This document shows, one piece after another, positions 7,328 through 18,988 of a DNA stretch of 29,461 nt; within the stretch, counting starts at the first letter, position 1; each line of letters begins with the position of its first letter. The notes beneath the pieces are model-generated. The model was given only the letters and a program-made list of their open reading frames with translations, made no database searches and was not told the DNA's origin. The stretch is from an uncultured archaeon (GTDB lineage: Archaea; Asgardarchaeota; Heimdallarchaeia; Heimdallarchaeales; Heimdallarchaeaceae), in NCBI GenBank assembly GCA_964549075.1, contig CAZJUB010000030.1, positions 1 through 29,461 on the forward strand. Reading direction: 5' to 3'. Position numbers and translations under genes: made by a program.

Positions 7328-7891
7328 ATGTCTGTCTTTGGAACCGTAAAAATCGTGCTTCTTGGTGATTACGCTACAGGTAAAACCACTCTAAAACGAA
7401 GTTTTATGGGATTACACCTTGATGAAGTGTATATGAGTACACTAGGTGTGGATCTAGCTTCTCACAAACATGTAGATGAGGATATAGAAATTAACTTTCA
7501 AATCTGGGATCTCGGAGGGCAAAAAGAATATAGCAAACTAAGGAAGAAACAGTATGTAGGTTCTGAAGGTGGACTACTTGTTTTCGATAAAAGTAGACCT
7601 GAAACTTTTGCTAATTTAACGAAATGGTTAGAGGAGCTTAATAGTTCTTTAAAAACAAAAATACCCGTCTTTTTGTTGGGTAATAAAGACGATTTGATGG
7701 GAGTTGAACAGAATAAAATGCTTGATAATCAAGCTAGAGCATTTTTAGAAGAAGCAAAAGACAAATATAAATTTGTGAAATTGATTGACTACTTCTCCAC
7801 TTGTGCTTTAACAGGTTCAAATGTTAATGATGCTTTTCTCGATTTAGGAAGAATAATAATGCGAAAGAAAAGCGATGATATGAAGATATAA
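7328..7891 (+). CDS. Rab/Ras-like small GTPase
   Basis: G1 GDYATGKT, G2 STLGVD, G3 WDLGGQ, G4 GNKDD, G5 TCAL; LLVFD..RPETF..L.KW; no C-terminal prenylation cysteines. Confidence 0.93.
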   Translation: MSVFGTVKIVLLGDYATGKTTLKRSFMGLHLDEVYMSTLGVDLASHKHVDEDIEINFQIWDLGGQKEYSKLRKKQYVGSEGGLLVFDKSRPETFANLTKWLEELNSSLKTKIPVFLLGNKDDLMGVEQNKMLDNQARAFLEEAKDKYKFVKLIDYFSTCALTGSNVNDAFLDLGRIIMRKKSDDMKI

Positions 7892-7955: not shown

Positions 7956-8861
7956 ATGGCTACTCTATTTGGTGATTTTGGTCAGATATTGGCAATGCTA
8001 GGACCTGTACTCATTTTCATAGGTCTATATATCGGATTCTGGATTTGGGGAAAATTTGCAAACAAGAAGAAGAAAGAGCAGTATTTTGATGATGTTCTTA
8101 CTGCAATGGACCCTTATATTATGAATTATTCTAGAAAAGATCCAAATGATCGTCAAGTCGAAATTCGTTGCCAGATGAATGAAGATTTTCTTGTTACAAG
8201 TGCATCAGCTTGGCTTATACTTCTCCCTAGAACAAGTTTTCCAACAATGTTAGTAGACGGATTGTTCTTTAGAAATAAAGATTCTTTTGGATTAGCAGCT
8301 AATTTTCCAGAAAAACCAAGAGTACTATTTGAAGTGATTCCATATAAAATGAAATCAGCAATAAAGAAGGATTTTGATTATCTGATAGAAATTGATGATC
8401 TTTCAACTCCAAATGCAGATATCAACAATAAGTTTCTCATTAAATCTAATAGAGGTAGAGCTATAAATCAATTAATCAGAAGCAATTCTTTCATAAAAGC
8501 TCTTACAGAGTATTCTAAAGAATTGCAATGGATTTCTGTTAGAACCGATGAACCTCATTTCGAATTAAAATTCAACCTTACAAAGCAACCGGCAGATTTG
8601 CTAATTTTAACAAAATTTGCTATGACAGTTTTGAAATTCTTTGCAAAGGTAACTGAATCAACTAAAAGCTTGCCAATTCCAACAGTTCTAAAGAAAGAAG
8701 TGAAAAAGCTTTCAGAAAAAGAGCTCAAGAAACAAGAGAAACAAAAAGAAAAGCAGATGGAAGAAAGAGAGAAAAGGAGAGAAAGAGCTCGAAAAGCTGA
8801 AGAAAAAAGAGCTAAAAAACGAACAAAAGAAGAAGAAAAAGCACGAAGAAAAGCTAAATAG
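7956..8861 (+). CDS. Probable CCDC47 (DUF1682, PAT complex subunit) homolog
   Basis: Single N-terminal TM ending WGKFANKK, then a globular domain with collinear resemblance to CCDC47 as recalled, then a long Lys/Glu/Arg coiled-coil tail. Confidence 0.6.
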   Translation: [301 protein letters not shown]

Positions 8862-12266: not shown

Positions 12267-13274
12267 ATGATGCCTTTCTCTGAACTATCTAATGACGTCA
12301 AGGGAAAGGTTCTTAGTTTACAATTATTTATCTCTCAATGTGCTGTTTTAGCTCATAATCTCCTTTATGCTAACGAAAATAAACCTGGAGGAGCTTCTTT
12401 CAGTAAAGAATTTGTTGATACTACAACAGAACATTTTCTTGCTGGAGCTAGTAGTTTATTTGCACCTATTTTTGGTTTAGCAAAAAGAGGTATTCTTGTT
12501 GCTGATAATCATCTCTGGTATGAAGATGCTGAAATTGGTTTTTTTATTGAGAAAGCTCTTGAAAAATCAAAAACTTGGTATAAATCAAACGGAAATACCA
12601 TTTTAGGTACTTTACTTATGTTCTCCCCGATAACACTAGGAATAGCAAATAGTTTTGCAACTGAAGGGATGAAAACCAACACAAAACTAAACCTAGACAA
12701 TGTAATCTATATTACTGATCAATTTATAAAAAATTCAACAACAGAAGATTGTATATATCTAACAGAAGCTCTCAACAAAACTGTATCGAAGAATATACTT
12801 CCATCAGATAAAGAGGAGGATAATTTTAATTCATTTTTAGAGATTCACAAACATGAAAAAACCAATCTTTATGAATTCACTACATTCTATAAAGATAGGG
12901 ATTTAGTCTTTTATGAACTATCTCATAAATATCAAATTACATTGAAAATTGGTTTTACTACTTTTCTTAGATCTTATGAAGAAGACCAAAATTTCAGAAC
13001 TGCAATTACACAGACCTATATCACTTTAATGTCTGAAAAGAAAGATACTCACATTGCAAAACGATTTGGAAATGAGATTGCTTCGAAAGTAAATCAACAA
13101 GCAAAAGAAATAATCAAAGCTGGAGGAGTATTTACAGAGGATGGTCAAGCAATGATTAAAGAATTAGATTTGTATTTGAGAACCTCAAATGGTAGAATAA
13201 TAAATCCTGGGACTGCTGCAGATATTACAGCTACTACGATTTTTCTAGCACTAATTCAAGGTTATCGTCCTTAA
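12267..13274 (+). CDS. CitG-family (triphosphoribosyl-dephospho-CoA synthase-like) protein, archaeal type
   Basis: KPG, NTILGTLL, DTHIAKRFG and INPGTAADITA motifs. Confidence 0.8.
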   Translation: MMPFSELSNDVKGKVLSLQLFISQCAVLAHNLLYANENKPGGASFSKEFVDTTTEHFLAGASSLFAPIFGLAKRGILVADNHLWYEDAEIGFFIEKALEKSKTWYKSNGNTILGTLLMFSPITLGIANSFATEGMKTNTKLNLDNVIYITDQFIKNSTTEDCIYLTEALNKTVSKNILPSDKEEDNFNSFLEIHKHEKTNLYEFTTFYKDRDLVFYELSHKYQITLKIGFTTFLRSYEEDQNFRTAITQTYITLMSEKKDTHIAKRFGNEIASKVNQQAKEIIKAGGVFTEDGQAMIKELDLYLRTSNGRIINPGTAADITATTIFLALIQGYRP

Positions 13275-14307
13275 GTGAAACTTCAACTTCAAACATTTTT
13301 TTAGTTCTTTTTAGTAATTCTGGAATAGTTATTTGGTCATATTCCATAATAATTGTTCTATTGACTAGTTTTACATAAACAAAACACCTATTTGCTAAAC
13401 AAAGAATCTGGAGATGAACTGGAGTATTAAAAAGATATTGAAAACCCTTTTCAGCTGCTTTAAATAAATCTGAAATTGTTTCATATTCATCGCTAATATT
13501 TGAGTTATTTGTGAGAGAAATATAGTCTTTGTTGAAAATATCTATCCTTGATGGTTTGTAGGTTGTTTTAAAAATATCAAGTAATTGTTGAGCTGTTTTT
13601 GTCTTAAACTGTCGGTATCTTCTAATCTCAAACTCGCTTATTTTTGATTCTAATACGAAAAATACATGTGGTAGAACAATTGTCTGTATTGAATTTCCTA
13701 AATGAGTAATATGGAAACATGTTCCTTTTGAACAATTTGTAAGTTTTTCTGATACTTTTCTGAAACTTTTTCCAAGTATCTGATAGATTGTAAAACTATC
13801 GATATTGTAATTTGGGGCGTTGGCATGGACTATAAGGGGATCATTTTCTTTAGAAAAAAGACACCAAGCTCGCAATTCTTTCCCTTCTTTATCTTCCATT
13901 AAAGAGTCAGCAATTTCTATCCCGCATTGTAGAAGTATATTCTTACATTGAATTTGAAATTCCTGAAAAAGACTTACATTTCCAACGAATTCCTTTATTT
14001 CTTTGTGATAAGTTTCAATAAATCTATTTGAGACAAGGTTCCCAACATACTCAGCGTAATCTGCAGGCATTTCATCATCAATCTGAAATATGAAAATAAG
14101 TGATTCTCTTGTTGATATGAGAAATTGACTCTCTTCTAATAACAATCTTGAAAGCTTATCTTTCTCTGTTTCTTCAACAAACCTAAGAATAGCTGTTAAT
14201 AGACCTGAAACTAGAACCTCATCTCCTCTAGCAAATTCTTGAAAATCAAATAATGGAACTCCATGTTCAGTTATTATCATGATTCGTTTAATTAGCATAA
14301 GTTTCAA
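13234..14307 (-). CDS. Multi-domain longin protein (longin plus two further longin/roadblock-like domains)
   Basis: N-terminus IMIITEHGVPLF...DEVLVSGLLTAILRFVEE is a typical longin (Mon1/Fuzzy/Asgard type). Two further beta-hairpin/helix/strand units follow. Start is TTG 14307 or ATG 14298. Confidence 0.7.
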   Translation of the reverse strand: MKLMLIKRIMIITEHGVPLFDFQEFARGDEVLVSGLLTAILRFVEETEKDKLSRLLLEESQFLISTRESLIFIFQIDDEMPADYAEYVGNLVSNRFIETYHKEIKEFVGNVSLFQEFQIQCKNILLQCGIEIADSLMEDKEGKELRAWCLFSKENDPLIVHANAPNYNIDSFTIYQILGKSFRKVSEKLTNCSKGTCFHITHLGNSIQTIVLPHVFFVLESKISEFEIRRYRQFKTKTAQQLLDIFKTTYKPSRIDIFNKDYISLTNNSNISDEYETISDLFKAAEKGFQYLFNTPVHLQILCLANRCFVYVKLVNRTIIMEYDQITIPELLKRTKKMFEVEVSLKDDNLELVLEKS

Positions 14308-15182
14308 CTCTCAACTTTGAACACTTGCAAGCTATCTTTTATCTCTTCTTGAGTAGGTTTATCGCTTGGTACTTTTTGTTTCAGTATTATTGAATAGATT
14401 CTTTCCGATAGATTCTTTTCTTTCTGTAAATTGATTATTTCTTTATGAAAGTCATAATTATAATGAAATAAAGATAATAAATAATTATCCAAACACCCAT
14501 GTTGCAATAGAACGGAGAAATTTGAAGATCCAATTTGCTTTTTTTCCATCTCTTGTGGTAATGTAAAATTCAATTTTTTGCTTATAAGGCGTATCAATCT
14601 ACTAAGAAAGTCTGAATTTTTTGAATTGAAGATTTCTGGAGAACTAAAAACAATAAATCTACCACGCCTTTTGTAAGCTGCTACCACTACTGGTTCATCG
14701 TCCATCAAAGCTAGAGGAATAAATTCCTTTATTCCATTTTCCTTTATGATTTTTCTATCACTTTCAGTATTAATAATATGTGCCTTGGTAATTGTTAGAT
14801 TTGAACCAATCAATCTAGTTTCAACTGGAATCTTGGGTAAACCATAAACATATTCAGATTGAAAAGATATGCCTATTTCTTTTCTAAATTCTTCAAAAAA
14901 TCTTCCTAAATCTGTCCATGGAGGAGAAGGGAGTGTTAATATTAAGCATCCTCCTATATCTATATAGGATATTAAGTCGATATACTGTTCTTGTGTAACC
15001 TTTTTACGTGGTAAGCTAATAAACAGAACATGAGATTTTTCCAATATCTCCCTATCTAAACCTGGACCTCTCTTCTTTACAATATTGATTTTTACTTGAG
15101 CAATTTCGGGATTAATTGCTCCTGCTATTAGTTTAGCTTTCACTTCTTCATTAAGAGATGTATCAATAGAGCAAAGTTTCAT
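14304..15182 (-). CDS. GIFT-domain (GldG/IFT52-like, class I GATase-like fold) cytosolic protein
   Basis: LEKSHVLFISLPRKKVTQEQYIDLISYIDIGGCLIL...IGISF and PVVVAA...GRFIVFSSPEIF resemble the GIFT/IFT52 pattern; no signal peptide or TM. Confidence 0.6.
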   Translation of the reverse strand: MKLCSIDTSLNEEVKAKLIAGAINPEIAQVKINIVKKRGPGLDREILEKSHVLFISLPRKKVTQEQYIDLISYIDIGGCLILTLPSPPWTDLGRFFEEFRKEIGISFQSEYVYGLPKIPVETRLIGSNLTITKAHIINTESDRKIIKENGIKEFIPLALMDDEPVVVAAYKRRGRFIVFSSPEIFNSKNSDFLSRLIRLISKKLNFTLPQEMEKKQIGSSNFSVLLQHGCLDNYLLSLFHYNYDFHKEIINLQKEKNLSERIYSIILKQKVPSDKPTQEEIKDSLQVFKVES

Positions 15183-15236
15183 CTATCTATGTGTGGATTT
15201 AGATTCATATAAGTTTATTGAGAAAGGAAAAGCACT

Positions 15237-16331
15237 TTATTCTTCACTTTCTTCAGATTTGATAATTCTCCTTAAATCCCTGCGTAATTTTCTCGCAGCA
15301 TTGTTTTCAGGAGTGTATTTTAAAGATTTTGTGACTTCAGAATAAGCTTCTTTGTTTTTGTCTTTTGATTTAAGAGCATAAGCACTTAATAGATGCGCTC
15401 GAGATATCATATGAGGAACATTCATCTGTTTTTCTTCAGTCTCAGCTAAAACTTGACCTGTATATTTCAGAACTTTGTCATAATCGCCCTTCTTGGTGTA
15501 TAATATAGCTAATTTTGATAAAATAGCCACATTTAATGGATCTTTGTCAATATATTCGTTAAGTAGAGTTATACACTTATCATCAAGTTCCATGGCTTCG
15601 TAATAATCTATAGCTTTTAAGAGAATACTTGGATCTTTTATCTTTTCAAACTTCATCGTTTTGTTGAAAACAAAGAAGTACAAAACAGCTCCTCCAATAA
15701 AAGCTGGAATCTGCATCACTAAGAGAACGATTTTATGTGCAAGAATAGGTACTGAAAATAATGATATAATCGGCTCAATTGACAATCCTATTGCTAGAAG
15801 ACCTGTAATTATGATAAAAATATAAAATCTTGGTCCAAAGAGTATATCTCTCCTTTTACTCTTAAATGTCCATTCATCCTCTTCATCTAGTTTGACTAAT
15901 AACTCCAAAGTATCTGATACAATAACATTCCCGGCAAATTCGATTAACATTAATACAAAAACAGCAAAGAAGTGGAATATTAAAGCGATAACAGCATCAT
16001 TTTCGAATAACGAGACATAACCGAATAAAATTAAAGAATATTCAATGATTATTGCAATAAGCTGATAGTTTCTAATTATTTTGATAGGCAACATGAAGAT
16101 GTTTCTCTTATAATGAATTTGCTTAGGTAACGGTCTTCTCCTAAACCTTACTAATCCCCATCCTACGATAAATAGAACAATTACTAAGAAAGAGATCCAG
16201 ACAATATTTGCTTCTGCTCGAACATCTGTGAAAGCTAGTACGAATATAACTGTTCCAAGTATTAGCATTACCAAGTCTTCGATAGACAAAGCCATATTTT
16301 CATCTGATTTGTAGACATTTTGCATAATCAT
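15237..16331 (-). CDS. Polytopic membrane protein with C-terminal TPR repeats
   Basis: About 6 hydrophobic helices followed by TPR-like DPLNVAILSKLAILYTKKGDYDKV and A...LKYTPENNAA. Start is uncertain (ATG 16331 or a downstream ATG). Confidence 0.75.
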   Translation of the reverse strand: MIMQNVYKSDENMALSIEDLVMLILGTVIFVLAFTDVRAEANIVWISFLVIVLFIVGWGLVRFRRRPLPKQIHYKRNIFMLPIKIIRNYQLIAIIIEYSLILFGYVSLFENDAVIALIFHFFAVFVLMLIEFAGNVIVSDTLELLVKLDEEDEWTFKSKRRDILFGPRFYIFIIITGLLAIGLSIEPIISLFSVPILAHKIVLLVMQIPAFIGGAVLYFFVFNKTMKFEKIKDPSILLKAIDYYEAMELDDKCITLLNEYIDKDPLNVAILSKLAILYTKKGDYDKVLKYTGQVLAETEEKQMNVPHMISRAHLLSAYALKSKDKNKEAYSEVTKSLKYTPENNAARKLRRDLRRIIKSEESEE

Positions 16332-16384: not shown

Positions 16385-18988
16385 CTACTCTGTTTTAGGA
16401 TTTTCAATGTCTTTTGTAAATACTGAAGCATATTCTTGCAATTTAATTTCCTCTAAAACTTTAGCTAATCTCTCAATTGCATTAAGATGATGTACTAGCG
16501 AATCAAGCCATGAATAGATGTCTCCAGGATAAGTTAAGATATTAAGTTCTTTCCTTATTTCGTCAGCTATTCTGGTAGGAGAATGACCCAACTTTCTATA
16601 TTCCACTATGATCTTTGAAAAAGCTATCTCACCACAATCACAAAAAGGTTTATCTGCACATTTGCAAGTGAAAATACTTTTTGTCCATTTACCAAAAGTT
16701 TCGATTACTAATTTAGAAGGACTATTCCTCCCCCAACCATTACCTGAATACAGATCTAAAATCGCACCAGAAAAAATGTTTGTTGATATAGTCGATTTTA
16801 GTATTCTCTCAATGTCACCATGGACTCTAGGAGCTAAATGTGCAGATCTAAAAGGTTGAATCTTAATAGCTAATGTCAAAGCAAAATCGTCATCATATTT
16901 TCTAGTCTTTTTTCGTTGAATTTCTTGAACAATTCTTAATGCATATGCAGGAGATAAAAATGAAAGAGAAACAGCCCTCCCCAATCTTGTCGGTGTAATA
17001 ACTTTGTTCTCTATATGAATCATGCCCATTTTTCTTAAATCTTTAATATTCTCTCTTAATGGATTAGATCTCCCCAAGATGTTAACAAATATCATTTTAT
17101 CATCAGAGATACTGACTACATTAAAGCAGACTATCGTTGCAAGAACTTCTTCTTCCTCCTCTATTGTATCAAGGACAGGCTCAACATCTTCTATTGGCTT
17201 GGTAAGTAAACTGAAAGCAACTTGTTCCTCTGTTTCTTTTTGTCCAACATAGATTTTACGCCCTGGTTCAACTAAAAGATATACTTTTCCTCTATCATGA
17301 AAACCCAATCTTCCCGCTCGACCTAACATCTGGTGAAATTCTGCAACTGATAACCATTTTATCCCCATTGCAAGATTTTCAAAAATAACAACTGAAGCAG
17401 GAAAATCTACACCTGCTCCAAGTGCAATGGTTGTAACTACAGTTGAATATCTACCTGACTCAAAACCTCTCTCTACACGTTTTCTATGAGTGTAAGTTAA
17501 ACCAGCATGATAGTAAGTTGCATTAATCCCTCTCCGTTTCAATTTTCTGGCAAGAGTTTCGCAGTTTTTTCTTGAATTAGTAAAGACTAAACATTGTCCT
17601 TGAAAACCAGCTTTCGATTTTACCTTTTCCTCATTTTTACAAATGTTAAATAGGTGATCAAAACGTTCAGCTTCATTTTCAGTAAGAATAGTGTGTCTTT
17701 CAAGAGGGATAGGTCTATCAAGATATTCTACACAATTGGCATATAACTCCTCAGCTAATCCCTGAGGATTGCCTATTGTAGCAGATAGATAGATAAATTG
17801 AGCTTTTGGGAAAAGTGCTTTTAGACGTGCAATTAGGCCATTCAGTCTAAATCCTCTCTCTTCAGCAACAAGCATCTGTACTTCATCAATAACTATGGTA
17901 CCAATCTCTCCCATTTCTTTACTTTTCGAATCTCTAAGTAAGAAATCAAATGCTTCATATGTTGCAACTATGATCTGAGCTTTTCTAAAATTATCGTCAA
18001 CAATTGGCTTAAATTCTCCCTGTACCTTGATTCTGCTCATTCCTACACGAATAGCTGTTTTTAATTGTAAATTTCTGTATCTCTTTTTGAACTGTTCATA
18101 CTTTTGATTTGTTAAGGCAACTAAAGGTGATAAATAAACAAATTTCTTCCCTTTTATTGCTTTGGGAATACCTGCTAATTCTCCAACTAACGTTTTTCCA
18201 GAAGTGGTTCCTGCGACCACAAGTAAGTCCTTATTTGTAAATAAACCTGCTTCTATTGCAGATTGTTGAACTGGTAGGAGCGTTTTGATACCATCTCTTA
18301 TCAATTGTTCTCTAAACTTTTGAGGTAATTTGTCAAGAGAATTGATATTAACTTGCTTATCAATTTTCTTACCAGGAATAATATCAAATAAGGTTGAATC
18401 AGGATTTTTTATGGGATCTTGATTTGATCCAAAAGAAATATTTTCAAGAACATTATCTAGATGACCTTCTCTTTGAGCTTGTTGTTGAAAGAATTTTGTT
18501 AAACCTCCAGAGACATAGAGATTACTCCTTTGAAGTTCGGTTGTTAACTCTGTTTTACTGCAATAATCACATATTCGGTGCCCTTTGAATTTAATAGAAT
18601 CTGTATCTAAAACAGTCCATCTGTTTCTTTTTAGCAGACAGGTTGAACAAACTTGAACAATTTTTGGTTTGGAGATTTTGAAAGTTGTGCAATACTCAAT
18701 CAGACTATTGTTATCCCATGGCAAATCAGTATCTGGTATTAAAAGATAATCTGCATCACGAAGATTATCAGTAGCAAAACCCGGTCTAATATAGATATTG
18801 GAACTTTTCCCTAATTTAAGATATTTATACACTCTCAGTCTATTTCTTTCATAAACAAATTGTAATCTAGTATGAACCAAAGCTTTACGAGTTTTTTTAT
18901 CTTTTAGACTAAAGTAGAGTATATCGACAGAACGTTTTGTCTTATTCCAATTAAACAAAATTGCAGCATAAGGTTTTGGAAGTTTCAT
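16385..18988 (-). CDS. Archaea-specific Ski2-like SF2 helicase (ASH-Ski2/DUF5814-type)
   Basis: Q motif LLPVQ, Walker A AGTTSGKT, PLVAL, DEVQ, SAT, YHAGL and QMLGRAGR motifs; N-terminal CxxC..CxxC and C-terminal CxC...PxCxC cysteine clusters. Confidence 0.9.
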   Translation of the reverse strand: MKLPKPYAAILFNWNKTKRSVDILYFSLKDKKTRKALVHTRLQFVYERNRLRVYKYLKLGKSSNIYIRPGFATDNLRDADYLLIPDTDLPWDNNSLIEYCTTFKISKPKIVQVCSTCLLKRNRWTVLDTDSIKFKGHRICDYCSKTELTTELQRSNLYVSGGLTKFFQQQAQREGHLDNVLENISFGSNQDPIKNPDSTLFDIIPGKKIDKQVNINSLDKLPQKFREQLIRDGIKTLLPVQQSAIEAGLFTNKDLLVVAGTTSGKTLVGELAGIPKAIKGKKFVYLSPLVALTNQKYEQFKKRYRNLQLKTAIRVGMSRIKVQGEFKPIVDDNFRKAQIIVATYEAFDFLLRDSKSKEMGEIGTIVIDEVQMLVAEERGFRLNGLIARLKALFPKAQFIYLSATIGNPQGLAEELYANCVEYLDRPIPLERHTILTENEAERFDHLFNICKNEEKVKSKAGFQGQCLVFTNSRKNCETLARKLKRRGINATYYHAGLTYTHRKRVERGFESGRYSTVVTTIALGAGVDFPASVVIFENLAMGIKWLSVAEFHQMLGRAGRLGFHDRGKVYLLVEPGRKIYVGQKETEEQVAFSLLTKPIEDVEPVLDTIEEEEEVLATIVCFNVVSISDDKMIFVNILGRSNPLRENIKDLRKMGMIHIENKVITPTRLGRAVSLSFLSPAYALRIVQEIQRKKTRKYDDDFALTLAIKIQPFRSAHLAPRVHGDIERILKSTISTNIFSGAILDLYSGNGWGRNSPSKLVIETFGKWTKSIFTCKCADKPFCDCGEIAFSKIIVEYRKLGHSPTRIADEIRKELNILTYPGDIYSWLDSLVHHLNAIERLAKVLEEIKLQEYASVFTKDIENPKTE

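Follow-up and report, generated by a model that had tools for sequence, protein, structure and literature searches.

Do two adjoining genes of an Asgard archaeon, one for a protein with the GIFT fold of IFT52 and one for a protein with three longin domains, specify subunits of a single small-GTPase regulator, or are they neighbours by descent only? The genes lie on contig CAZJUB010000030.1 of a Heimdallarchaeaceae archaeon (29,461 nt; this whole stretch, as analysed, is called the window below), and the genes under study are all on its minus strand. The 292-aa GIFT-fold protein is encoded at 14304–15182 and the 354-aa tri-longin protein at 13234–14298, and they are preceded by a gene at 15237–16331 for a 364-aa membrane protein with tetratricopeptide repeats (TPRs); the open reading frame (ORF) list has all three, the tri-longin one as 13234–14307 (357 aa, from a TTG). 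Three consecutive longins in one chain are the mark of the TLD (tri-longin domain) RabGEFs, guanine nucleotide exchange factors (GEFs) for Rab GTPases. The eukaryotic TLD GEFs are heterodimers of paralogues, and Mon1-Ccz1, BLOC-3 and Fuzzy-Inturned control endosome maturation, lysosome-related organelles and cilium assembly; to our knowledge they have been treated as eukaryotic inventions. What is new here is a tri-longin protein that is prokaryotic, is encoded by a single-copy gene and shares its operon with a GIFT-fold partner. The assignment of the two folds, taken by itself, is highly probable. As a composite reading, a lineage-specific GIFT/tri-longin regulator of a small GTPase is put forward tentatively, with slightly less than an even chance of being right.

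Gene Pair, Spacing and Promoter

All three genes are real and conserved: 47 and 33 homologues were found for the GIFT and tri-longin proteins, and the membrane TPR protein is matched in 29 of the 30 other genomes of the family. Counts were made over 400 Asgard genomes (for the membrane TPR protein, over the order only), and f1 denotes the family of the window, represented by 30 genomes besides its own. The GIFT gene was found in 29 of these 30, with five weak partial matches in the 369 genomes outside f1, and the full-length tri-longin gene in 28; every homologue with a name is from a metagenome bin assigned to Heimdallarchaeota or Heimdallarchaeaceae. Wherever both genes are on one contig (28 loci in five genera) they are adjacent and on the same strand, with the GIFT gene first. 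Three genomes hold one gene of the pair, and there the remaining gene is at or near a contig start or, in G035, is a truncated match. In G027 the membrane TPR and GIFT genes are on C37, and a partial GIFT gene with the tri-longin gene is on C96; this looks like one locus cut by an assembly break, or like two strains, and would account for the two GIFT matches of this genome.

The junction, read from the GIFT gene into the tri-longin gene, is ...GTT GAG AGT TGA AAC TTA TGC..., in which the GIFT stop codon TGA occupies 14306–14304. A TTG at 14307–14305 overlaps this stop to form TTGA and would give a 4-nt gene overlap and a tri-longin protein of 357 aa, and an in-frame ATG at 14298, 5 nt past the stop, gives the 354-aa form. 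Since the public gene call for the protein (P0048) is of 354 aa, matching the ATG, and since in each of 28 related loci an ATG, GTG or TTG placed −20 to +9 nt relative to the GIFT stop opens the conserved N-terminus, ATG 14298 is the likelier start and TTG 14307 was set aside. The sequence-only reading had the GIFT stop abutting or overlapping the longin start: of the two, abutting is right, and a start within TTGA is probably not the one in use. Its further claim, that the two are likely co-translated, agrees with the near-zero spacing, which held in all 28 loci while the GIFT and tri-longin proteins diverged to 43% and 53% identity, respectively.

The stop of the membrane TPR gene and the ATG of the GIFT gene are 54 nt apart. 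A TATA-like box, TTATAT, is found at 15207–15212 (minus strand), 25–30 nt upstream of the GIFT ATG, and in all five genera an element of the type TTTATAT/TTTAAAT/CTTATAT precedes the GIFT start by about 20–35 nt, in the 27 f1 loci whose sequence includes this start; locus L021, which begins inside the GIFT gene, is left out of this count. Read against the usual geometry of archaeal promoters, the box is probably the dedicated promoter of a leaderless GIFT/tri-longin bicistron, and the membrane TPR gene seems to be a separate transcription unit. The latter gene had been described as co-directional and ending 54 bp upstream of the GIFT gene, which is what we found in the window; in two genomes it is on the opposite strand.

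GIFT-Fold Protein

The AlphaFold2 model of the GIFT protein (33 sequences) has a predicted local distance difference test (pLDDT) value of 91.9 and a predicted template modelling score (pTM) of 0.89. Residues 1 to about 207, with a first strand beginning at residue 2, form a flavodoxin-like or class-I-amidotransferase-like domain that is closest to IFT52's N-terminal GIFT domain (IFT52N), and residues from about 210 to 292 form a small domain of three strands and two helices (β3/α2). Foldseek matched the model to GH42 middle domains, IFT52N, OST48/Wbp1 and ThuA-like proteins, all within the class-I-amidotransferase-like fold family. In VIA alignments the Chlamydomonas and mouse IFT52N domains gave Z 18.9 (194 residues) and 18.2 (189 residues) with a root-mean-square deviation (rmsd) of 2.7 Å, the next fold appearing at Z 15.4, and a search of 48,161 chains made independently of Foldseek ranked mouse IFT52N first at 18.2, against 15.2 for the next fold. 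IFT52N stands about 3 Z units above the GH42-type, OST48 and ThuA folds.

At the sequence level the same family is pointed to, at lower scores. Pfam PF23355 (IFT52_GIFT) matches 32 of 33 GIFT family members at E ≤ 1 (best E 1.8e-5) and is by far the commonest Pfam match, followed by DUF4350 in five members and ABC_transp_aux in two; one relative, P0013, carries a precomputed PF23355 label. When the family profile was run against PDB sequences, IFT52 ranked first and second at the non-significant E values of 0.062 and 0.11, with GIFT residues 43–114, the "GG" strand region, aligned to IFT52 51–122. The alignment with full-length IFT52 (8bd7_B, 454 aa) spans residues 1–207 of the model only, residues 210–292 not having been searched separately, and just 82 residues follow the GIFT domain in the 292-aa protein. 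Because there is no hydrophobic N-terminus (maximum 19-residue Kyte-Doolittle score 1.43), the protein is cytosolic like IFT52. The description of a cytosolic IFT52-like GIFT protein lacking a signal peptide, made from the sequence at the outset, thus finds support in a fold comparison led by IFT52N.

The same fold family contains many enzymes, and the 292-aa protein could in principle be a class I glutamine amidotransferase, a ThuA-like protein or a glycoside-hydrolase accessory domain of a metabolic operon. Amidotransferase, ThuA and GH42 domains do share the fold at Z 12–15, and a CitG-like gene is found next door on the other strand. The residues expected of such an enzyme are not maintained: residue 79, the candidate nucleophile column after the invariant GG, is C22/T9/G1/N1 in 33 sequences, and two positions ahead of the invariant Glu183 the column reads S24/T8/A1, with no His. 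Positions 79 and 183 are presumed to be those of the amidotransferase Cys-His-Glu triad, an equation made from the motifs of such enzymes and not from a residue-level structural alignment. Enzyme folds compared with the model gave Z 10–13.7 against 18–19 for IFT52N, which lies about 3 Z above every enzyme, and no enzyme family was found in Pfam or NCBIfam scans of the protein; in the NCBIfam scan neither the GIFT nor the tri-longin protein had any match. The protein is unlikely to be an enzyme, its amidotransferase nucleophile apparently lost, and the metabolic reading, which the sequence-only reading had itself named as a way of being wrong, is very improbable. The KRRG motif at 171–174, invariant in the family, is located in a β-hairpin.

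GIFT domains, the subject reportedly of a paper by Beatson and Ponting, are common in Asgard archaea. Of 400 Asgard genomes, 373 have a PF23355 match above its cut-off, as against 0 of 14 controls; most of these matches cover profile positions 2–108 and are in ORFs of 300–500 aa. The genome of the window itself encodes, at C6:16864-17187 (L056:424-1830, minus strand), a 469-aa cytosolic protein with an N-terminal IFT52_GIFT domain (41.3 bits, over the cut-off) and a long Glu/Lys-rich C-terminal region, whose residues 2–163 match IFT52 (5fmr_A) in phmmer at E 2.6e-6. Four further GIFT-like proteins, on C92, C9, C46 and C77, have hydrophobic N-termini and C-terminal transmembrane anchors. Between the window GIFT protein and the C6 protein there is no more than a remote relationship (hhalign E 0.069). 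A gene for a ParA/MinD-like ATPase is divergently transcribed from the C6 GIFT gene.

These data bear on the proposal that the locus is a true proto-IFT/CPLANE module (IFT, intraflagellar transport), in which the GIFT protein is the direct ancestor of IFT52 and its pairing with a Fuzzy/Inturned-like protein and a TPR protein prefigures ciliary trafficking. The fold-level matches to IFT52N and to Fuzzy/Inturned speak for it, as does the contact of the IFT52 GIFT domain with the TPRs of IFT88 in the IFT-B model (accessible part of PMC9753473). Against it, the GIFT family occurs in one Asgard family and a length-unrestricted profile search of 1.84 billion representatives returned only nine proteins at E ≤ 0.001, none of them fused to longins; in the alignment with full-length IFT52 nothing matches beyond the GIFT domain; the tri-longin protein matches Mon1/Ccz1/HPS as well as Fuzzy/Inturned; and another paralogue of the same genome is much nearer to IFT52. 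Since the C6 protein is a far better IFT52 match and GIFT domains are common in Asgard genomes, the window protein is a divergent lineage-specific member of a large Asgard GIFT repertoire and not the best candidate for an IFT52 ancestor. For the same two reasons the "ciliary trafficking vocabulary" of the sequence-only reading comes down to a resemblance of folds and is no evidence of a proto-IFT system. A true proto-IFT/CPLANE module is hard to credit, and a ciliary link of the module is unsupported beyond fold resemblance.

Tri-Longin Protein

The AlphaFold2 model of the tri-longin protein (pLDDT 84.5, pTM 0.82) contains, by DSSP, three β-β-α-β3-α units at residues 3–102, 142–247 and 251–337. 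When the model was compared with the PDB by Foldseek, all 17 matches shown down to rank 21 were tri-longin RabGEF subunits, namely MON1A, CCZ1, Drosophila and fungal Mon1/Ccz1, the BLOC-3 subunits HPS1 and HPS4, Fuzzy and Inturned. These matches are collinear over about 360–490 alignment columns at E 9.1e-9 to 5.5e-5, and bacteriophytochromes come next at about 1e-4. The multi-longin protein announced from the sequence is therefore specifically a protein of three longins, like Fuzzy, Inturned, Mon1 and Ccz1. The ESM Atlas clusters closest to it consist of unnamed Asgard proteins (0.92–0.93), and a cluster named Fuz_longin_1 at 0.84 is a lead only.

PF19036 (Fuz_longin_1, "First longin domain of FUZ, MON1 and HPS1") matches 18 of 32 tri-longin family members at E ≤ 1, and with a best E of 0.0013 the scores of the family members are below the 26.1-bit cut-off. 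For the second and third longins (LD2 and LD3), no eukaryotic LD2 or LD3 family is among the 25 listed of the 27 Pfam families that match the 32 members, and the likeness there is one of structural collinearity. One full-length copy is present in the genome of the window (89.7% complete), the other four matches being single longins at E about 1e-6, and no fused form was seen among proteins of 621–2000 aa, which is weak evidence.

The strongest link to the eukaryotic family passes through more distant Asgard proteins. Proteins of 348–396 aa from other Asgard families align to the tri-longin family hidden Markov model at E 8e-13 to 3e-19, in several cases over almost the whole length. An alignment of seven of them, four of which pass the PF19036 cut-off, was compared with the tri-longin family in hhalign, which aligned 317 columns at 99.3% probability and E 1.8e-20. 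The PF19036 cut-off is exceeded by four of the nine distant relatives tested, with 35.0, 40.8, 29.2 and 27.9 bits. With a profile of the distant family, 59 of the 400 Asgard genomes each gave a single full-length match (E ≤ 1e-80), in families f17, f18, f19, f20 and f21; the f1 tri-longins come back with this profile at 1e-26 to 1e-28, about half of the rows spanning the full length and the others the first ~250 positions. The sequence comparisons show that the tri-longin protein is homologous to a wider Asgard family that passes the Pfam threshold for the Fuz/Mon1/HPS1 longin.

Membrane TPR Protein and Neighbouring Genes

Hydropathy places about six transmembrane segments in the 364-aa protein, at residues 14–32, 43–61, ~88–109, 114–132, 171–189 and ~197–219, followed by a C-terminal part of ~145 residues with about three TPR repeats at residues ~235–345. 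Several TPR families (PF13431, best E 0.0011; TPR_7, TPR_12, TPR_2 and others) match residues 235–345, all under their cut-offs, and the NCBIfam MamA and PrsT TPR models match at E 3e-4. Loop 62–77 has seven Lys/Arg and no Asp/Glu residues, and by the positive-inside rule the N-terminus and the C-terminal TPR region are predicted to be cytosolic. The gene is a constant neighbour of the GIFT gene, in the genome of the window and in 29 of the 30 others of the family; it is on the same strand in 28 genomes and on the opposite strand in G015 and G016, both of genus g5. The family was not found in 16 other genomes of the order. Three-gene synteny, proposed as a check on the module, is thus kept in Heimdallarchaeaceae apart from the two inversions, and it does not extend to the tri-longin genes of other Asgard families, which lack a GIFT neighbour.

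Elsewhere in the same genome three TPR-array proteins of ~575–610 aa (C35 L003:1426-3252, minus strand; C4 L005:1294-3108, minus strand; C181 L004:31-1752, plus strand) have a C-terminus that matches the profile of the first longin (LD1) of the tri-longin protein at E 3.1e-6 to 1.2e-5; the C35 protein, the only one of the three scored by Pfam, reaches 23.9 bits with Fuz_longin_1, under the cut-off. A 387-aa multi-transmembrane protein on C116 (L002:751-1911, plus strand) also ends in a longin of the LD1 subtype. As a domain-fusion hint, these proteins suggest that TPR arrays, membranes and LD1-type longins may work together.

Just upstream of the membrane TPR gene, and belonging to the conserved block, is a gene at 16385–18988 (minus strand) for an 867-aa Hel308/Ski2-like DEAD-box helicase with an N-terminal Cys-rich region and a C-terminal DUF5814 domain. 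On the other side a CitG-like gene (PF01874, E 5e-45) at 12267–13274 (plus strand) converges on the tri-longin gene, the 3′ ends overlapping by 41 nt, and this convergent arrangement is kept across the family. The G+C content across the window is 29–39%. All or part of the stretch is contained in 19 DNA sequencing runs, mostly salt-marsh and sediment metagenomes, and no RNA run is among the listed runs that contain it. PADLOC defence models gave no matches for any of the three proteins.

Proposed Mechanism and Competing Explanations

In the mechanism proposed, the GIFT and tri-longin genes would form a two-gene operon, expressed as one leaderless message under a TATA-like promoter of its own and with the tri-longin gene translationally coupled to the GIFT gene. 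The GIFT protein would serve as a cytosolic, non-catalytic, protein-binding scaffold and accessory subunit. The tri-longin protein would be an archaeal relative of the Mon1-Ccz1, BLOC-3 and Fuzzy-Inturned RabGEF subunits, and by analogy its LD1 may pair with that of a second copy; a homodimer is favoured over the eukaryotic type of heterodimer because the tri-longin gene is single-copy. Such a dimer could be a platform that binds one of the genome's many Ras-superfamily GTPases and controls which nucleotide it carries, by analogy in the manner of a GEF, and the 6-transmembrane/TPR protein is a candidate membrane receptor on which the complex might dock. We infer co-transcription, GTPase regulation and its direction (GEF or GAP, a GTPase-activating protein), membrane recruitment and the identity of the GTPase.

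The genome of the window has 36 Ras-family matches. A Ras/Rab-like GTPase gene at 7328–7891 (plus strand; PF00071, E 4.8e-33) has orthologues with 53–62% identity 4.4–7.5 kb from the tri-longin gene in four of five genomes of other genera; with unrelated genes in between, it is only a candidate client of the module. It is followed after 64 nt by a gene at 7956–8861 (plus strand) matching CCDC47, a subunit of the PAT complex (PF07946, E 3.6e-9, 36.7 bits, over the cut-off). At one distant tri-longin locus, that of G280, the gene directly upstream of and co-directional with the tri-longin gene (L043:2545-3972, plus strand) encodes a 476-aa protein that matches Gtr1/RagA and Arf GTPases; the other eight of the nine distant loci have no GTPase neighbour.

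A number of results weigh against the proposed regulator, and they concern each of its parts. As for the folds, the PF23355 match of the window GIFT protein (16.6 bits, E 0.0042, 47 residues) is under the 27.2-bit cut-off, a status shown for this protein only. The window tri-longin copy has no PF19036 match at E ≤ 1, and its sole Pfam match is a chance-level one to TEP1_N (E 0.07). Sequence-profile searches of the PDB with the tri-longin family and distant-relative alignments gave no matches at E ≤ 10 and E ≤ 1, respectively. Global TM-scores of the tri-longin model to TLD subunits are low (0.19–0.29, rmsd 20–24 Å), so the relative placement of the domains either differs or is poorly modelled. 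Rigid-body VIA alignment superposes LD1 only, with Z 13.2–13.6 for VAMP7 and Sec22b, 12.6 for HPS4, 12.0 for Fuzzy and 11.1 for CCZ1; on the model, LD1 is a generic longin, no closer to HPS4 and Fuzzy than to the longins of SNARE, SRX and adaptin proteins. As rigid-body alignment does not favour the TLD proteins, the TLD call rests on the collinear Foldseek matches and the Pfam bridge. The tri-longin gene is single-copy, whereas the TLD RabGEFs are heterodimers of paralogues.

As for the association of the parts, there is no small GTPase in the GIFT/tri-longin operon and the nearest is 5.3 kb away. Physical association of the GIFT and tri-longin proteins is something that we infer, and a two-chain complex prediction, with its own alignment for each protein, gave scores of 0.00 and 0.00 against a mark of 0.32, which speaks neither for nor against binding. 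The GIFT and membrane TPR families are confined to Heimdallarchaeaceae, and the genes are embedded in a block of ~10 kb (helicase, membrane TPR, GIFT, tri-longin, CitG-like, 189-aa and NnrD-like) that is syntenic in the four other genera examined, so that conservation of the neighbourhood may be mere inheritance. Outside the family the tri-longin gene keeps other company: the nine distant loci examined all lack a GIFT-like gene next to it, and at seven of the nine the tri-longin gene adjoins, in any orientation, an unrelated membrane protein gene (loci L037–L040 and L042–L044 of genomes G137, G127, G169, G142, G129, G280 and G217).

This distant partner is a multi-transmembrane protein of ~345–436 aa (41–68% identity) with a Cys-rich C-terminal domain and no Pfam family. 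It is present in 36 of 341 sampled genomes, adjoining the tri-longin gene in 28 of the 36, and is absent from 30 of 30 f1 genomes and from the genome of the window. The C-terminal ~160 residues, in their ESM Atlas model, are similar to clusters of RdxA_C and V4R (TM 0.62–0.79 by row), a lead only; the pairing of a longin with a V4R/Bet3-like domain in these genes recalls TRAPP. Given this other partner, the tri-longin protein is the ancient element, with a partner that varies by lineage, and GIFT plus the membrane TPR protein are the Heimdallarchaeaceae version. The arrangement suggests interchangeable anchoring or adaptor subunits for Asgard tri-longins.

The same observations can be read more simply, the three proteins being neighbours by descent that function independently, with a spacing that comes from a compact genome and from co-transcription without a common complex, and with a tri-longin protein that acts as in other Asgard archaea, its partners encoded elsewhere. 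The syntenic ~10-kb block, the tri-longin genes of other families without GIFT neighbours and the standing of GIFT and the membrane TPR protein as lineage-specific additions all fit such an account. It is less at ease with a stop-to-start distance kept between −20 and +9 nt at all 28 loci despite divergence to 43% and 53% identity, since spacing of this kind is typical of translationally coupled subunits, and with a membrane TPR gene that is still adjacent where it is inverted. Because the whole block is syntenic, conservation of the neighbourhood alone says little, and the retained near-zero spacing is the stronger argument. We regard independent function as unlikely, though as a serious contender.

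A different question is what a tri-longin platform would do to its GTPase. With or without the GIFT protein, it might be a GAP or a passive GTPase-binding platform of the MglB/Roadblock, Ragulator or FLCN/SMCR8 kind, given that longin and roadblock platforms act as GEFs, GAPs and scaffolds alike. LD1, structurally a generic longin, has an invariant G13-x-P15 in the β1–β2 loop and a nearly invariant Arg24, and Asgard longins with a GAP-type GP motif and an arginine finger are described in the accessible part of PMC12290439. The motif here is G-x-P, however, in place of the adjacent GP given in that part of the paper, and the three-domain architecture and the Fuz_longin_1 family point to the TLD GEF group. 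A GAP or passive platform is rather doubtful on this evidence.

Comparison with Known Systems

IFT52N (PDB 5fmr, 5fms and 8bd7_B) is likewise cytosolic and non-catalytic and has the same fold over ~190 residues. In the IFT-B model, according to the accessible part of PMC9753473, the IFT52 GIFT domain touches the TPRs of IFT88 and the coiled coil of IFT57/38, and the background statement of the sequence-only reading that IFT52 contacts the TPR proteins IFT88 and IFT70 agrees with that source. IFT52 is, on the other hand, about 430–450 aa long against the 292 aa of the window GIFT protein, which has no match to its IFT88/IFT70-binding middle segment or its IFT46-binding C-terminal domain (residues 210–292 were not searched separately), and which is encoded with a tri-longin protein that is no IFT-B partner. 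GldG/ABC_transp_aux, OST48/Wbp1 (Z 12.9–14.3) and the anchored GIFT proteins of the same genome belong to the same fold class; GldG, OST48/Wbp1 and the C92, C9, C46 and C77 proteins are extracytoplasmic or membrane-anchored, whereas the window protein is soluble and cytosolic. Asgard IFT52_GIFT proteins of the C6 type are also cytosolic and differ from it in the C-terminus and in gene context.

Like the window tri-longin protein, TLD RabGEF subunits have three consecutive longins per chain, and its LD1 is tied to Fuz_longin_1 through the Asgard relatives; at 354 aa and without long inserts it is far more compact than they are. The longins of MglB, Ragulator-like, FLCN/SMCR8-type and TRAPP proteins share with it the longin fold as a small-GTPase platform. 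These, in the literature as far as it was accessible, are single longin or roadblock domains or GTPase or DENN fusions, and no three-longin chain is described there.

Asgard genomes are rich in longin and roadblock proteins (accessible parts of PMC10933270, PMC12290439 and 10.1101/2020.10.19.343400), and papers on Asgard eukaryotic signature proteins (ESPs) describe many longin/roadblock families and FLCN/NPRL2-type longins (10.1101/2020.10.19.343400 and PMC12290439, in the same parts). The literature search found no paper that pairs Asgard with IFT52 or with tri-longin. No archaeal Ccz1 homologue is described in the accessible parts of PMC10933270 and PMC11513930. Mon1, Fuzzy, HPS or IFT homologues are not mentioned in the main text of PMC12962969, nor in the accessible main text of 10.1101/2020.10.19.343400, 10.64898/2026.10.28.762692 and PMC12290439, and the supplementary ESP tables of these papers may list them. 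Automatic annotation already tags some Asgard proteins as Fuz_longin_1, as seen in an ESM Atlas cluster name.

In its most far-reaching form the finding would make Asgard tri-longins the prokaryotic ancestors of the TLD RabGEFs, acting at the membrane as homodimeric GEFs for Rab-like GTPases to which Heimdallarchaeaceae added an IFT52-type GIFT scaffold and a TPR membrane receptor, a free-standing archaeal counterpart of the GIFT, TPR and longin set that the ciliary base later came to use (IFT-B plus CPLANE); we consider this improbable as a whole. If the GIFT and tri-longin proteins do not interact, the locus would hold two lineage-specific hypothetical proteins with eukaryote-like folds, common in Asgard genomes. 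Tri-longins occur in the window and in at least five other Asgard families, there in a more Pfam-recognisable form, and a compact single-copy Asgard tri-longin would give the TLD RabGEF family a prokaryotic root. It would also be a tractable minimal system in which the sufficiency of a homodimer, the GTPase target and the role of an accessory subunit could be addressed.

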